64,000 nucleotides of DNA, from positions 736,001 through 800,000 of the forward strand of contig CAWDFP010000006.1 in NCBI GenBank assembly GCA_963801605.1, read 5' to 3'. The stretch is from an uncultured candidate division Zixibacteria bacterium (GTDB lineage Bacteria; Zixibacteria; MSB-5A5; UBA10806). Position 1 is the first letter of the stretch. Every line of letters begins with the position of its first letter. Of the stretch, positions 36,001 to 51,000 are shown in pieces. Made by a program: the position numbers.

Positions 36001-39000
36001 CCTTGCCGCCGATTTTAATATCAAATTCTGAATCAACTTTAGACGTTATCTATTAACAAAAAGTTAATTGGTAAACAGAATTAGTTATTCCTTAGGGTTC
36101 TTTAGCTTTTTGGTTTTAGTTTCATCGAGCCACGGGTTTTTGATCTTTGCCCGGCTAACAAAATCGGTTAAAAATAATTTTAATATTGGTCACAATATAG
36201 CATCTTAATGTTTCCGGTCAAGTTTTTTTAGGGGAGTCTTAGACGTAAAGCGTACCTAATGCCAAATATTAAAAAAACGATTCCGTTGATACATAATAAG
36301 TTAGCTTTTTATTTTGCGTAATAGGCCGTACGTAATAATAGCTATATCTTGTCGCATTGACTTTTTTCCCGGAAGAGGCTATCTACTTTCGCGTACGACG
36401 TAAGTTTTGTAATGCGGACGCAAGAGATTTGTATAAAATGCGCCTGACGAATGACTATTGAGTCGTTTGCAAATTAGTGATGCCAAAAATCAGAGGCGCC
36501 GATCAACCCCAGTATCCCAACCGCAAATAATTGATCGGCGCCTTTTGAGCATTTTTTGCCAAATAACTGTTTTTTCCAATTCCTGCCACACCTTTAAGAT
36601 CTTATTTACACAATCGCCAACCTACTTTCAAAATTTTTAATTATTAGTGGAATAAGGCAATTAAATATTGTAAAAATGGGAATTAATAAGAAATTGATCG
36701 TTATTGCGGCTAATCTTAAAAACCTGTAAAATTATTCAGATACTTGGTTTTTGCACCCACTTATTATGATTTTTCACAACAAGTTTGACTAAAATCTGTG
36801 TTGTATGTTAATATAGAGGCATTAAGGGAACCTGGTGATTGGTTCTACTTTATGATTTGCGTCATATTTCCCTTGACGGAGCTGATAATGATGTTTAGTA
36901 TAGTTATCAAATATTTGGAGGCGATTGTGAAGGTATTCACATCAGCTAAATTTCCTTTACTTCTTGCTCTTCTTACTGCGCTTCTGACCTTATCATGCGA
37001 AACCGAGGTTAAGGAGTTAACTATCAGGGTAACAAGTCGTATGTACTCTAATTTCGAAGAAGAGCATAAGGTCAAGATGTACGAAAAATTTCAGATATCC
37101 GATACTGATCTTGAGGCCGTGGCGGTTGAATTCTATCCTGATTTCGATCTCGATACCCTGACGTTTAAGGCTTATTCCAAATCGGATACGTTAAATAATC
37201 CTGCCGTCAAGATTCTGATCATCAAAGGAAATGAGAAAAAAGAGGAAGCCTGGGCGTTTTTGCCGGGGCTGGTTCCGCATTTCTCACCTCGTTCTTTTAT
37301 TGGTTTTGAACTGATGGATTACAAAACTGGCAAGAAATATATAAAGCCGCTAAAACCCAGTCCTGAAAAAGGGAAGGAAAATGAATAAAAGGCTACTAAT
37401 CTGCATTGCGCTTCTATTTTGTTTTGGATCATCCTCCCTTTACGCGAAGCAAAAGGAATGTTACGATTGCCATCAAAAGGCAAAAAAAACCTTCGATTCG
37501 TATAAATATTCGCACGAACCTGTCAAAAGCAAAGATTGTGCGGCCTGTCATGATTCGCATGGATTTTCGCAAAAGCTTGTTCTGAAGGCATACGATAACA
37601 GCATTTGCACCAAATGCCACAAGGAATTTGCGGCGGGCTATCCTCCCAGCACGGCAACTTATGTTCATCAGCCTATGAAAGATCGCGTTTGTTGGTCTTG
37701 TCATGAGCCTCACGGCAGTAATCTTCCATCGCTGGTGCGGGTGGTAAATGACACTTTGGTTTGCTTTATATGCCATGACGACGTAGGCAATCTTCAAAAA
37801 AAGACAGTGGTACATGAGCCATTCGCAAAAAATCAATGTTCGGCCTGCCACAGTGCACATGACAGTCAAGTCGCAGGGCTTCTAAATAAAAATCAAAAGG
37901 AGCTATGCGCCGGATGTCACAGCTTAACCGATAAAGATTATTTGGCTAAACACTCAGTTACGGGTATCGATAAAATCGATTGTGTTACTTGTCACAATCC
38001 TCATGCCTCCGACAAACCAGGCCTGATCGATCCACTGGCACATGCTCCGATGGTAGAGGGTAGTTGCGAAAGTTGCCATAGTAATTTGGCCGCGGGAGAT
38101 ACCACAATTTCGACCACGCCCGGCGAACTATGTGTTACCTGCCATGATGATATTGGCAAGAAAATGGCCATGGCAACGCCTCATCCGCCGGCGGCGGGCG
38201 GAGAATGTCTAACCTGTCATTCGGCTCATAAGGGTAAAGAAAAATCGTTATTAGTATCCAAGCCCGGCGAACTATGCCTGGGATGTCATACCGAGTTCGC
38301 CGACACGTTAAAACTCGAAGGTGTCCATACTGCATTAAGAAATGGCGACTGCAATCTTTGTCATGATTCTCACGGTTCTCCCAATAAAAGCCTGGTTAAG
38401 GATACATCGGATAAACTCTGTCTCGATTGCCATACCGCCCTCAGGGATTCGATGTCTGTTGCAAAGACTCCTCATCCTGCCGTGGAGACCAAGGGATGTC
38501 TCGGTTGCCATCAACCGCATTATTCCAAAAAGATGCCCCTTTTGGTTGATGACGAGAAGCTGATTTGCTTACAATGCCATGACAATCTTAAAGAAGAGAG
38601 CAAGGCCGGAACGGTTCATATTCCGTTTATGTCGGGGCAATGCGGAGCCTGCCATAATCCGCATGGTTCATCCCAGCCTAATATGTTTCGGTCAAGCGTA
38701 CCGGCCGTTTGCGGGCGGTGCCACAATGACGTTATCCAGACTCTCTCTTTGCCGTCAACACACCCGCCTGCCAAAGAGGGTGAATGCCTTTCATGCCACA
38801 AACCGCACTCATCAGATTTTGCCAGGCTTTTAAAGGCAAATGAAAGTCAAAGCTGTGCCGAGTGCCATGGCGATCTGGATGGTAAGCTCGCCGTAAAGAA
38901 TCTTCATACGCCTGTTAAGAATGGCCAATGTACAGCTTGCCATAATCCTCATGGCGCCAAAGAGGCAAAGCTTCTGCCTGCAAGCGGGAAAGATCTTTGT

Positions 39001-48000: not shown

Positions 48001-51000
48001 ATTTGCCGATCGTATCGATTGGAGAGACGCATACGCTAAGCGAACTGACGCAGAAGATCTGCCATGACATTGTTTCTGATTTTGTAAGCCGTGCCTTTTA
48101 AGGAGAATTCGGATGAAGCTTTACTCGAAAACAAACTGGATAATAATTTTATCGTTGGCGTTTTTGTCATGCGGTCCAAAGCCAAGCGTTTACCTGCAGG
48201 ATAACAATGGCGCCAAAGCGTCCAAGACGCTCGCCATTTTGCCATTCGATAATTACTCCGGAAAAGAGGATGCCGGCAAGCAAGTGGCCAATGCCTTTTT
48301 GGTGGAACTTCTCAAGAATCCATCGTTTCATGTCGTAGAGCCGGGAGAAGTCGATAGGGTGATGAGGGAGGAACGGATTCGCTCATCGAGCCAGATTGAT
48401 CTGAATGCGGCTCGGCTATTTAAAGATAAGCTTTCGTCGGATTATATTTTAATTGGCGCGGTCAATGAGTTTGATTATCTCAAAGACGGCGATCGTGATG
48501 TTCCCCTGGTGGGATTTACGGTAAGGTTGCTCGATACCTCAAATGGACAGATTGTTTGGGCGGCCAACTACAGCAGGCGGGGGGACGATCACGAGCTTGT
48601 TTTCGGCTGGGGTTTGGTAAGCTCGCTTTCGGAACTAACTCAAATCAGCGTTCGCGATGCAATTTCCCGTATAAAGATTGCACAGTAAACGTAACTCATT
48701 ACCTCTCTTTTGGTTAGCTTGCCGTCTTAACGGTAAGAATAACGATAATTATTTGAAATAATACTTGACATAGTAATTGTTACTAATATATTTATGACGA
48801 ATATCATAAATCCCGAGAGGATTTTTGTTAAACGCTCTTGTGAAGAACTTCACTAACCTCGATGTAGAAAAAAAATGAGAAGATACTTTATCCCGCTGAT
48901 TTTCCTACTTGTCAACCTGGCTGTCTCGGCCGAACCGTTGGTCGAGCCCAATGTCAGTCTTGTCAGTGTGGTTAAAGGTTATTCGGATCGTAAAGCATTT
49001 GGAAATCCCACAGGAATATTCCTCGATCCCATAAAAAACGAAATCTATGTCGCCGACGCCGGTAATCATCAGATTGGGATATTCGACAAGCGCGGCACCA
49101 GCTTGTGGACATTCAAGCACTGGGTAACGGATAGCCGGGAGGAAGGCGCCAGGATATCTGGGCGATCCTCATTCAATAGTGGTTACCAAAGACGGCGACA
49201 TCATCGTCAGCGACAACAAAGCTGATTATATCGATGTTTTTGATTATCGCGGCTCACTTCAATTAAAAATATCTCCTGAAGATTATCCTGAGGCAGGCCC
49301 ATTCAGAGGCGCCATTCTGGCGCTTGATAAATCAGGCAATCTTTATATCGGCACGATTCTTGAAAAATCGGAAATCCTGGTGCTCGATTCCGATTATCAG
49401 CTTATCAAGCGATTCGGGAAAAAAGGTGAGGAGCCGCAGGATTTCCAGAATATCTCGGGAATCTGGGTGAACGGTGATGGCAACATTCTGGTCACCGATG
49501 CCCTGGGCACTCCAATTTTGAAGAAATTCAATTCCAACGGCGAATATCTCGGTGGTTTTGGAGAGCATAGTATCGAGAAAAACGATTTTTCGTTTCCAAG
49601 CGGAGTGGTGATGACCTCAAGCGGGCGGATCTGGATCGTCGATCAACTTCGACAGGTAGTCAAATGCGTGAACGATTCGGGAGCTTTCATCACTATGATC
49701 GGCGGCCTGGGATATGCTCCCGGCGATATGTGCTATCCCTCCGGAGCCGCTTCCGACGGAGATTCGACGCTGGTAGTAGTCGAGAAAAACGGTAATAGAT
49801 TTCAACAATTTATCATCAGGTAATAAAATGATTAACCCTAAAGTAAATATGCCAGAAGGAGGTGGTACGGTAGTTACAATTTTCACAACTCAGATTGTTA
49901 TTACACGCACTTATTATCAAATTCGAGAGGTTTTGTAATGAAGAAAATTTTCGCACTAACTCTGGCAATGGTATTCGTTTTCGCGATGACGGCATTCGCC
50001 GGTGAATACCACATGGGAAGCTCATTGAGCTGCTACCAGTGCCATTCAATGCACTATAGCCAACAGCATATGTTTGGCTATGCTCACGAGGATAGTATTC
50101 CGTTCCTCGGCCCCGATGGACCATACAACAAGCTGCTTCGTTCGGATGTCAACGATCTTTGCCTTTCCTGCCATGACGGGGGAGATGTCATAGATGTTTA
50201 CGGCGTATCCGAAGTCAACGCGACAGTTAACCGCGAGGGCGGTTTCCTTAGCAGAGTCGGCGACGGCAATGAGAATCACGGCCATACGCTCGGAGCCACC
50301 AGCACTGCTCCCGGTAGCCTTCCAGCTTGGAGCCCGGATCAGACAGAGGGTCTTACCTGCGTCAATTGCCATAGCGCACACGGCAGCGCCGGTTCAGGGA
50401 ATCCGGATCAGGTTAAGGGTCAGTGGAGAAACCTGACCAGGAATCCTGGCAACGGAACCAACAGATACGTCAACTACGAAAAATCCAGCGAGCCCGTAAA
50501 CACGACCCGCGACATCAAGTGGAGATCCTCCAGCGCCCACGACGCCGGCGCTTATGAAACCGACAATGTCGATTTTTATGAGCCCGTGTCATCTGAATCC
50601 CGTTACGGCGCCTGGTGCCAGGGATGCCATACCAATTTCCATGGTAATTCCTCAAGCGACAATATGGCTAATGCGGACGGATGGATCCGTCACCCGACAG
50701 CCGACGTTAATCTAGGGACCTCTGGCGCAACCGATTTTGCATCCCATGCTTATCGTCCGCAAGTGATGAGCCCGACAGGCAACTGGGGCACCCAGGGCGA
50801 TTCCACCTGGACTCCGCCGACCGATCTTACCCCGACTTGCGTTACTTGCCATAAAGGCCACGGCAACGGTAATGCGTTCGGTCTCGTTTATATGGATGGC
50901 CGCCATCCGCGTACAGAAAACGGCGATGCGGTATCTACCAAGATTACTGCTACCTGCAAAATCTGTCACAGCCAGGGCGGTTATTAATAGTCCGCTTGAA

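Follow-up and report, generated by a model that had tools for sequence, protein, structure and literature searches.

The 18-bp palindromes described here are probably operators of the single Rex protein of this uncultured member of the Zixibacteria, which would block a shared set of electron-shedding genes at low NADH/NAD+ and release them at high NADH. The sites, their conservation, their placement relative to promoters, and an intact Rex can be read directly from the genome. At a low ratio, Rex is expected to block transcription by occupying a set of promoters or the DNA just behind them: those of rex itself, of an operon encoding an OmcS-like cytochrome (at the head and at an internal promoter), of a CbcL-like quinol-to-cytochrome pair, of two cytoplasmic NiFe hydrogenase operons, and of several NAD-linked fermentation genes. 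As NADH builds up, Rex would let go, as established Rex biochemistry leads one to expect, and the electron-shedding routes would be made together. Judged from its motifs, the switch is of a known kind and the OmcS-like operon is a new target. Features of the window (the whole 64,000-nucleotide stretch analyzed) are listed in Table 1.

Table 1. Predicted regulatory sites and genes in the window. Positions count from the first nucleotide of the window; Rex box mismatches are relative to TTGTGAA-N4-TTCACAA.
Feature	Position	Strand	Remarks
Weak Rex-like box	8354..8371		3 mismatches; ends 5 bp upstream of the hydrogenase promoter -35
Sigma70-type promoter, hydrogenase operon	8377..8405	+	TTGACT-17-TATTAT, read from sequence
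Rex box	8409..8426		1 mismatch; covers predicted transcription start and ribosome-binding site; ends at A of ATG
Sulfhydrogenase-type NiFe hydrogenase operon	8426..13449	+	beta, cNMP-domain protein, gamma, delta, alpha (frameshift-split), protease
Second palindrome, TATGAY-N4-RTCATA	36851..36866		immediately upstream of -35
Cytochrome operon head promoter	36873..36901	+	TTGACG-17-TAGTAT; -35 aligns in G002 and G266
Rex box	36925..36942		1 mismatch; overlaps GTG start of first gene
First gene, predicted lipoprotein, 153 aa	36927..37388	+	start corrected from 36798; no match in NCBIfam search
Cytochrome c, 1038 aa	37381..40497	+	42 CXXCH motifs
Small membrane protein and small cytochrome	40504..41586	+	cytochrome split by frameshift
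Two NHL-repeat beta-propeller genes	41465..43356	+
Six-heme OmcS-like paralogue and seven-heme cytochrome	43346..45729	+
Exported 539-aa protein, putative outer-membrane beta-barrel	45883..47502	+	beta-barrel cluster at atlas rank 22, with the family on 20% of its members; no match in Pfam and NCBIfam searches
Two LpoB/CsgG-like lipoproteins	47517..48688	+
Internal promoter	48765..48792	+	TTGACA-16-TATATT; serves NHL, OmcS-like and paralogue genes
Second palindrome, TATGACGAATATCATA	48793..48808		abuts -10 on downstream side; conserved in G001, G002, G004
Rex box	48838..48855		1 mismatch; in leader, 37 bp ahead of ATG; conserved in G001, G002, G004
Third NHL-repeat gene	48875..49823	+	frameshift-split in assembly
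Weak Rex-like box	49871..49888		3 mismatches; upstream of OmcS-like gene; 2 mismatches there in G266
OmcS-like hexaheme cytochrome	49938..50987	+	profile match to OmcS 6ef8
Further OmcS-like paralogue	51058..52176	+	7 CXXCH motifs

The operator consensus used, TTGTGAA-N4-TTCACAA with a fixed 4-base spacer, is printed as that of Rex in the available text of two papers (PMC5317091, PMC6391272). Rescanning the genome at one mismatch or fewer returned exactly the eight sites of the first-pass annotation (in contig numbering, 595651 at rex, 744409, 772925, 784838, 861413, 950049, C11:210279, and one intragenic); at two or fewer there are 26. The window boxes at 36925 (TTGTGAAGGTATTCACAT), at 48838 (TTGTGAAGAACTTCACTA), and at 8409, ahead of the first hydrogenase operon, were confirmed. 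In the non-coding DNA of the genome, delimited like all scripted analyses by a crude longest-ORF gene set, the Rex palindrome ranks first among 210 letter-permutations of its half-site, with 6 sites at ≤1 mismatch (permutation mean 0.21) and 17 at ≤2 (mean 3.4). When the spacer was varied from 1 to 8 bases, only the 4-base spacer yielded non-coding sites, which together with the first rank argues that the palindromes are not due to chance.

Several lines of evidence identify the Rex protein. It scores 254 bits against the NCBIfam Rex equivalog (cut-off 217), matches PF06971 above cut-off, and aligns with solved Rex structures at E = 1e-45, including the RKDLS helix and the GVGNIG motif; an N-terminal winged-helix domain precedes a Rossmann domain with GXGXXG. 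By these sequence features, the genome's single Rex is intact. The rex gene was found in 263 of 285 genomes of the phylum (193 of 198 good ones). For the order, an earlier count of 24 of 24 genomes is corrected to 23 of 24, G020 (88% complete) being without a match. A box precedes rex in all 21 order loci fetched, 19 of them perfect, in line with the 20 of 20 (19 perfect) counted before. Among 30 loci fetched out of 38 matches, all 30 have the box, 23 in perfect form; of six further Zixibacteria rex loci, four have it at ≤2 mismatches and two lack it. Upstream of rex in G272 and G274, no box was found within 4 mismatches. When loss of rex was compared with loss of boxes, G272 had rex and 0 boxes, and in G040, of the same genus, neither rex nor a box was found. 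Six genomes without a PF06971 match retain 4–10 boxes: a contig ends within rex in G190 and G135, and in the incomplete or fragmented genomes G068, G183, G250 and G254 rex was searched for and not found.

Conservation on the OmcS-like operon was examined in 113 promoter windows. Boxes with ≤2 mismatches number 65, in 43 of 50 genomes (kin, not independent samples); at higher ranks, 7 of 8 families and 19 of 22 genera are represented. By comparison, 200 dinucleotide shuffles gave a mean of 0.26 sites and a maximum of 3, and 209 permuted palindromes at most 4. This extends an earlier count of 8 of 10 relatives' loci, which had been set against base-content shuffles. The total omits G100, where the gene is truncated by the start of the contig, as well as second copies at five loci (no box in G281b and G279b, a 3-mismatch site in G254b and G001b, both box types in G101b). 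An OmcS-like gene or operon occurs in 51 of the 285 genomes, and in genus g121 no box was found on the operon in any of the 4 genomes, two of which have rex and boxes elsewhere; the proposal that Rex governs extracellular electron transfer genes throughout the phylum is an overstatement. Two stand-alone OmcS-like paralogues had no box either.

The boxes lie on or just behind predicted promoters, which is the placement of a repressor. Of 68 TTGAC(A/T)-16..18-TA...T elements in the operon windows, 35 have TCACAA two bases past the -10; in control loci this holds for 0 of 19 promoter-like elements, and in non-coding DNA of the genome for 1 of 295. These -10-fused sites have left halves TTGTTA or TTGCTA and 2–3 mismatches; their perfect right half is partly forced by the mismatch cut-off, and the count of promoter elements is the unbiased test. 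In 11 genomes a second box lies 95–105 bp downstream. Sites of the downstream type have A at position 7 in 36 of 43 cases, and the Rex-specific T at position 12 in only 22, with A in 16. The worry that site 772925 (36925 in the window) lies inside the called start of g01019, the lipoprotein gene, is resolved by reassigning the start: the likely start codon is the GTG at 36927, preceded by GGAGG at 36917, and it is this codon that the box overlaps. In relatives the same box matches the consensus perfectly (G002), differs from it at one base (G266), or, in G004, has 2 mismatches and lies a short way ahead of the start. At gathering thresholds no Rfam family matched in the window, and hence no known riboswitch precedes the operon.

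The operon's namesake is an exported hexaheme cytochrome homologous to OmcS (structure 6EF8), an assignment that rests on a distant profile match. All full-length homologues listed have six CXXCH motifs, and a profile of 26 homologues has a single significant match, OmcS 6ef8 (E = 3.5e-9; next E = 0.021); a single-sequence search of the PDB returned nothing at E ≤ 1. Since the structure model is of low confidence (pLDDT 54.7), fold searches lend rank support only: 6ef8 is the sole Foldseek row (E = 3.5e-3, TM 0.31) and the top VIA result (Z 4.7, rmsd 5.2, 229 aligned; next Z 2.2). The protein presumably forms filaments.

Boxes before two NiFe hydrogenase operons, as first annotated, are conserved at both. 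The sulfhydrogenase-type operon, which we take to be group 3b, was assigned from sulfhydrogenase models scoring below their cut-offs and from RxCGxC and DPCxxC motifs; hypF, hypD and hypE follow it, to 18264. Its box (≤2 mismatches) is present in 19 of 29 orthologous loci (the best 30 of 151 matching genomes, one skipped). The second operon is hdrCBA-mvhDGA, with a conserved box in 10 of 17 loci. The conserved boxes suggest joint induction of the OmcS-like and hydrogenase genes as a way for the cell to dispose of excess electrons.

Beyond these operons, the predicted regulon includes part, not all, of the multiheme genes. The box at the supposed pair of 10- and 19-heme cytochromes stands, and the label changes: each combines a multiheme part with a membrane domain of the cytochrome b (FDH-gamma) type, and the two form a CbcL-like inner-membrane pair. 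CbcL itself carries a b-type cytochrome domain. In both proteins the FDH-gamma model matches the C-terminus, below cut-off, with hydrophobic segments after the heme motifs, consistent with a periplasmic multiheme domain joined to cytochrome b in the membrane; the first is frameshifted, with an eleventh heme motif upstream. The box was found in 10 of 30 loci (best 30 of 236 matching genomes), and is rarer than those at the hydrogenase and OmcS-like genes. As for the multiheme conduits assigned to Rex control, a site with ≤3 mismatches is present in only 4 of the 10 other multiheme promoter regions of this genome; the largest cluster (4+16+58+10 heme motifs) has none at that threshold. The serine-operon site proved poorly conserved, occurring in 2 of 14 loci, both of one genus (one serine locus was skipped). 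Other sites with ≤2 mismatches precede NAD- or redox-linked genes (alanine and glutamate dehydrogenases, acetate-CoA ligase, dcd-porCA).

We considered who else might read these boxes. TTGTGAA-N4-TTCACAA contains the CRP/HcpR consensus TGTGA-N6-TCACA, which the boxes fit, the genome has one CRP/FNR gene, and the operon sites often have A at position 12. In Desulfovibrio, where the consensus was originally attributed to HcpR, such sites cover the -10 of sat and aps (PMC545781, available text), and the sites of Rex are described as identical to those of HcpR1 (PMC5701242, available text). A CRP/HcpR-type reader is nevertheless quite improbable: according to the accessible part of PMC5701242, TGTGA recognition requires R, E and R at helix positions 1, 2 and 6, and R was at position 1 in none of the 30 helices read (from 31 loci; one locus and four second copies are outside the count). 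HTH_Crp_2 gave no strong match (no match, or a best E above 1e-7) in 17 genomes that have the operon, several of them incomplete; 14 of these keep boxes at ≤2 mismatches, all 14 with rex, and the best boxes lie upstream of rex. Because Rex is intact and has a box on its own promoter in 30/30 loci, because none of the CRP-family helices read has the arginine, and because 14 of the 17 genomes lacking a strong CRP match keep their boxes, Rex is the likeliest reader.

Somewhat less improbable, and still unlikely, is that Rex acts on its own and the hydrogenase promoters while the operon's degenerate sites are read by another repressor with an overlapping consensus, or provide minor tuning under a factor binding TATGAY-N4-RTCATA. 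The -10-fused sites with their altered left halves would fit this, as would the boxes retained by the four incomplete or fragmented genomes in which rex was not found, and the second palindrome sits on both operon promoters here and upstream of two other cytochrome genes. However, 19 of 50 genomes have perfect or 1-mismatch Rex boxes on the operon, the left-half changes are those that a -10 hexamer would force, and only 5 of 50 genomes have the second palindrome (≤1 mismatch) at promoters of the operon. It is hardly credible that the boxes merely reflect the base composition of AT-rich promoters together with ribosome-binding sites and start codons, even if 8409 contains an AAGGAG ribosome-binding site, 36925 a GTG start, and the -10-fused sites share promoter letters; the permuted-palindrome and dinucleotide controls and the promoter-element count largely refute it, and the G004 box is kept despite having shifted out of the coding sequence.

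The first-pass annotation had found no such report, yet the available text of one paper describes TTGTGA-N6-TCACAA motifs before hyd-3b and three putative extracellular multiheme cytochrome genes of Calderihabitans maritimus KKC1, jointly up-regulated under CO (PMC7306483). That case resembles ours in having predicted Rex motifs on both hydrogenase and multiheme cytochrome genes; it differs in concerning one Gram-positive strain and single cytochrome genes, with no OmcS-type operon or conservation test in that text. Since the Rex switch is textbook knowledge and Rex motifs before extracellular multiheme genes have been reported once, the gain here is a new target class across a phylum. Caldicellulosiruptor bescii shares the consensus, and its Rex targets include rex, pyruvate:ferredoxin oxidoreductase, a class V aminotransferase/PGDH/hypothetical unit and hydrogenases, the last two being validated targets; NADH disrupted the gel shifts, and the available text describes no cytochrome targets (PMC6391272). 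In Caldithrix abyssi, another deep-branching Gram-negative lineage, a Rex box likewise lies ahead of a rex-hydrogenase unit, but the hydrogenase is of the FeFe type and no Rex site is described for cytochrome genes in the accessible text (PMC5317091). The Desulfovibrio sat/aps operators, degenerate TTGTtA/TTGctA...TCACAA overlapping the -10 of respiratory promoters, are built like the -10-fused sites (PMC545781), and a title cited in PMC5701242 names Rex as sat repressor; there the targets are sulfate-reduction genes, and an Arg180-bearing CRP paralogue, of which we found none here, can share the site (available text of PMC545781 and PMC5701242). In Geobacter sulfurreducens, an OmcS homologue and several paralogues likewise lie inside a larger accessory-gene operon (omcS/osc), a likeness of layout; the control named in the available text, a second-hand description, is by c-di-GMP and two-component systems, and Rex has no occurrence in it (PMC13194489). 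CbcL of G. sulfurreducens, an inner-membrane quinol-cytochrome c oxidoreductase with a periplasmic multiheme domain, is likened to our pair by architecture, with 9 c-hemes compared to 11 (across the frameshift) and 19 (PMC13591261, available text). Our search found no paper linking Rex with OmcS (Geobacter omcS included) or Zixibacteria with Rex, and no Zixibacteria title on a Rex-cytochrome link; it covered main texts and few subscription papers, and RegPrecise-type tables or supplements could list such sites.

The timing and purpose of cytochrome filaments are debated even in Geobacter, and because the Zixibacteria are uncultured, their many multiheme genes lack physiological context. Through a conserved predicted Rex operator, the OmcS-like operon is linked both with the hydrogenases and with a surplus of NADH inside the cell, and Rex control predicts outward electron flow under acceptor limitation. 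We tentatively propose, as one possibility, that the OmcS-type filament and its assembly operon are the NADH overflow valve of a fermenter in most Zixibacteria having the operon: one redox switch would open both H2 evolution and a path for electrons from quinol through CbcL and the filament to minerals or to partner cells, as opposed to induction of the filament by an external acceptor. If so, nanowire synthesis would be NADH-gated, and the outward direction of electron flow would be fixed from sequence alone for an uncultured phylum. The predicted switch consists of one small soluble protein and 18-bp sites, and is testable without culturing. The TATGAY-N4-RTCATA palindrome, for its part, suggests co-regulation, with a second regulator probably sharing these promoters in the host's family.

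The Rex regulon predicted for this genome has a real and well-conserved extension to the OmcS-type operon, and is narrower than the first-pass annotation had it in covering the nanowire operon, multihaem conduits and hydrogenases. A scan of the 3.06-Mb genome found 8 sites with at most one mismatch to the palindrome TTGTGAA-N4-TTCACAA (the Rex box), reproducing exactly the eight listed previously, and 26 with at most two; three of the former lie in the window (8409, 36925 and 48838). The earlier shuffles had kept base content only, so as a stricter control all 210 letter permutations of the half-site were scored as palindromes. 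In non-coding DNA the Rex form still ranked first of the 210 at both cut-offs, with 6 sites at ≤1 mismatch (permutation mean 0.21) and 17 at ≤2 (mean 3.4); about 14 of the latter are therefore beyond chance. When spacers of 1–8 bases were tried, only the 4-base spacer gave non-coding sites.

The first gene of the operon reads as a lipoprotein and probably starts at GTG 36927, preceded by GGAGG, with a TTGACG-17-TAGTAT promoter ~25 bp upstream. With this corrected start, the site at contig position 772925 (window 36925), previously placed inside the called start, sits at the gene's 5′ end and not deep within it. Among relatives, G002 has this box without a mismatch and G266 with one, and in G004 it is shifted to just 5′ of the start. 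Box 48838, kept in G001, G002 and G004, is a leader site of an internal promoter; this promoter drives the third NHL gene together with the OmcS-like gene and one of its paralogues. Homology supports the OmcS label: OmcS was the only significant match in a PDB search with a 26-homologue profile (E = 3.5e-9) and ranked first in both fold searches, run on a poor model with pLDDT 54.7 (Foldseek E = 3.5e-3; VIA Z 4.7, rmsd 5.2, 229 aligned). The window also holds a promoter-like TTGACT-17-TATCTA element; ~100 bp further on come a long inverted repeat of high GC content (GGCGCCGATCAA...TTGATCGGCGCC) and a T-run. This stretch could be a small RNA; it had no Rfam match and no alignment in three relatives.

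An OmcS-like gene was detected in 51 of the 285 phylum genomes. From 50 of these, the host included, we took 113 windows, lying upstream of the operon's first gene, its third NHL gene or its OmcS-like gene. These contain 65 sites at ≤2 mismatches, in 43/50 genomes, 19/22 genera and 7/8 families (counts that overstate independence, as the genomes are kin), which bears out on a larger set the earlier claim of boxes in relatives' nanowire loci. The same windows gave a mean of 0.26 and a maximum of 3 sites in 200 dinucleotide shuffles, and at most 4 with permuted palindromes. Two builds occur. One has the box fused to the −10, with TCACAA two bases after it in 35/68 promoter-like elements, compared to 1/295 elsewhere in host non-coding DNA and 0/19 in control loci; in the other a box nearer the canonical form lies in the leader, and in 11 genomes such a box stands 95–105 bp behind the first. 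No box was found in the operon windows of any of the four genomes of genus g121, where the operon is rearranged (loci L052, L058, L062): in G252 and G255 the OmcS-like gene comes before those of the lipoprotein and the large cytochrome. G252 and G255 do have rex, with 8 and 6 boxes, respectively, at other places in the genome. Two stand-alone OmcS-like paralogues likewise have no box upstream.

Several further arrangements were seen. A box with two mismatches lies 136 bp upstream of an Acidobacteriota OmcS-like gene, in a genome with rex, hinting that a Rex link may reach past Zixibacteria. Six genomes of family f9 (loci L063, L065, L066, L073, L083, L088) carry a direct repeat, GTCAY-N6-GTCAY, upstream of the OmcS-like gene, with an 11-bp period and placed either 5′ of the −35 or 3′ of the Rex box; we take it to resemble PHO-box or OmpR-type sites. 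Two other genomes contain intergenic runs of boxes, and the host has an additional −10-fused box in which TTGACA-17-TATTTT is followed by TTTCACAA.

Rex probably reads the predicted operon sites. It is intact in the host and found in 263/285 phylum genomes, and the box reported upstream of rex recurs in 30/30 loci, 23 of them perfect (30 of 38 matches taken); among six further Zixibacteria rex loci, two, both of family f10, have no upstream box. The Rex box also includes the CRP/HcpR consensus, and in the passages cited such sites in Desulfovibrio were first credited to HcpR (PMC545781), so a CRP/HcpR-type regulator was put to the test as reader. Recognition of TGTGA requires Arg at helix position 1, as the relevant parts of PMC545781 and PMC5701242 have it, but none of the 30 CRP-family helices read, that of the host's only CRP/FNR protein included, has Arg there. 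Moreover, of the 17 operon genomes without a strong CRP-helix match, 14 keep boxes and have rex, leaving this alternative very improbable.

Some observations weigh against a clean assignment to Rex. Leader-type sites have T at position 12 in only 22/43 cases; six fragmented or incomplete genomes without a rex-domain match keep 4–10 boxes (a contig end cuts rex in two, and rex was not found in four); and one genome with rex has zero boxes.

Both NiFe hydrogenase operons named in the first-pass annotation do have the box. Box 8409 lies 3′ of a TTGACT-17-TATTAT promoter and spans the ribosome-binding site of the sulfhydrogenase-type operon, and a weaker Rex-like site ends 5 bp upstream of the −35. 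A site at ≤2 mismatches precedes hydB, its first gene, in 19/29 loci, host included (from the best 30 of 151 matching genomes). Sites 950049 and 950162 both lie upstream of hdrCBA-mvhDGA, and hdrC has a site in 10/17 loci, host included, or 10/12 at ≥58% identity. The serine operon has its box (C11:210279, upstream of a hypothetical gene, phosphoglycerate dehydrogenase and serC), conserved in 2/14 loci only, host included. Permutation means for these locus counts and for the CbcL-like gene were ≤0.11. Two-mismatch sites also precede genes for alanine dehydrogenase, glutamate dehydrogenase, acetate-CoA ligase, dcd-porCA, an HpaB-family protein, a tetrahaem cytochrome and RNase Y. Chance will account for some of them. 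A lone cyclic-nucleotide-binding domain gene lies within the sulfhydrogenase-type operon.

Site 861413 stands upstream of two proteins with 10 and 19 haem motifs (an eleventh in the first is on a frameshifted piece upstream) and a cytochrome b-like membrane domain at the end. The pair, earlier considered a conduit, is CbcL-like and of the inner, not the outer, membrane. The CbcL-like gene has a ≤2-mismatch site in 10/30 loci, host included (best 30 of 236 matching genomes). Coverage of multihaem genes holds in part: 4/10 other multihaem promoter regions have a site at ≤3 mismatches (57/1078 for crude operon heads), but there is no such site at the largest cluster, whose cytochromes have 4, 16, 58 and 10 haem motifs. 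Its locus, L113, encodes a membrane protein plus the cytochromes, and a 1440-aa protein there consists of tandem repeats.

NADH is established to release Rex from DNA (PMC5317091, PMC7306483, PMC6391272, in the parts cited); given these sites, Rex would be predicted to repress the hydrogenases, CbcL-like pair and OmcS-like operon at low NADH/NAD+, and high NADH to induce them jointly. Under this model, scarcity of acceptors would raise the operon, hyd and hdr-mvh together. We infer that the three form one outward electron route. A CbcL-like gene lies convergently within ~10 kb downstream of the OmcS-like gene in five f9 genomes (G094, G095, G098, G102, G103), which fits a single such route. 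An overflow-valve physiology for the operon and its putative filament is a tentative suggestion. In the sections cited, Calderihabitans likewise has Rex-like motifs upstream of hyd-3b and three extracellular multihaem genes (PMC7306483), and in Caldicellulosiruptor the validated targets of Rex include a serine-type unit and hydrogenases (PMC6391272). The novelty claimed earlier is thus qualified by the Calderihabitans precedent, and stands for Rex with OmcS or Zixibacteria, which no paper linked in a literature search with most subscription papers and supplements outside its scope.

A second palindrome, TATGAY-N4-RTCATA, lies on both operon promoters and is conserved in the host's family, frequently coinciding with the −10 or −35. 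The host has 7 exact copies, 4 before cytochrome genes, 1 before a TonB-type gene (the product looks like a TonB-dependent receptor from its N-terminus) and 2 intragenic. Family f1 has 48 copies in 14 genomes vs. 8 for the reversed control; at one mismatch the motif was not enriched genome-wide (rank 10 among permutations). An FNR-like gene occurs in 13/13 family relatives and also in G032, a genome that has the palindrome on its OmcS-like promoter too; the product of this gene is a candidate reader, as a lead only. Several host genes are split by frameshifts, probably assembly indels.

Coordinates of features (G000, host genome; L, fetched loci)
Feature	Location	Remark
Cyclic-nucleotide-binding domain gene	window 9594-10049	
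Hydrogenase large subunit	window 11640-12969	split by frameshift
PAS kinase	window 19047-21228	split by frameshift
Promoter-like element, inverted repeat	window 36373-36560	
TATGAY-N4-RTCATA	window 36851-36866; 48793-48808	operon promoters
Small cytochrome	window 41031-41586	split by frameshift
NHL gene	window 48875-49823	split by frameshift
CbcL-like gene	G000 C6:861472-863413	split by frameshift
TATGAY-N4-RTCATA elsewhere	G000 C6:592397, 1269290, 1458452	two upstream of further cytochrome genes, one upstream of a probable TonB-dependent receptor gene
CRP/FNR gene	C6:580313-581083	
Largest multihaem cluster	C6:304876-311667	
Locus L113	G000 C6:303962-311667	
Additional −10-fused box	G000 C7 near 324044	minus strand
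Acidobacteriota box	L047:9865-9882	
Tandem box array	L262:1221-1698 (G067:C9:66720-67197)	seven boxes, each ≤1 mismatch, 76-77 bp period
Run of boxes	L263:1609-2185 (G190:C9:25108-25684)	five boxes in 580 bp
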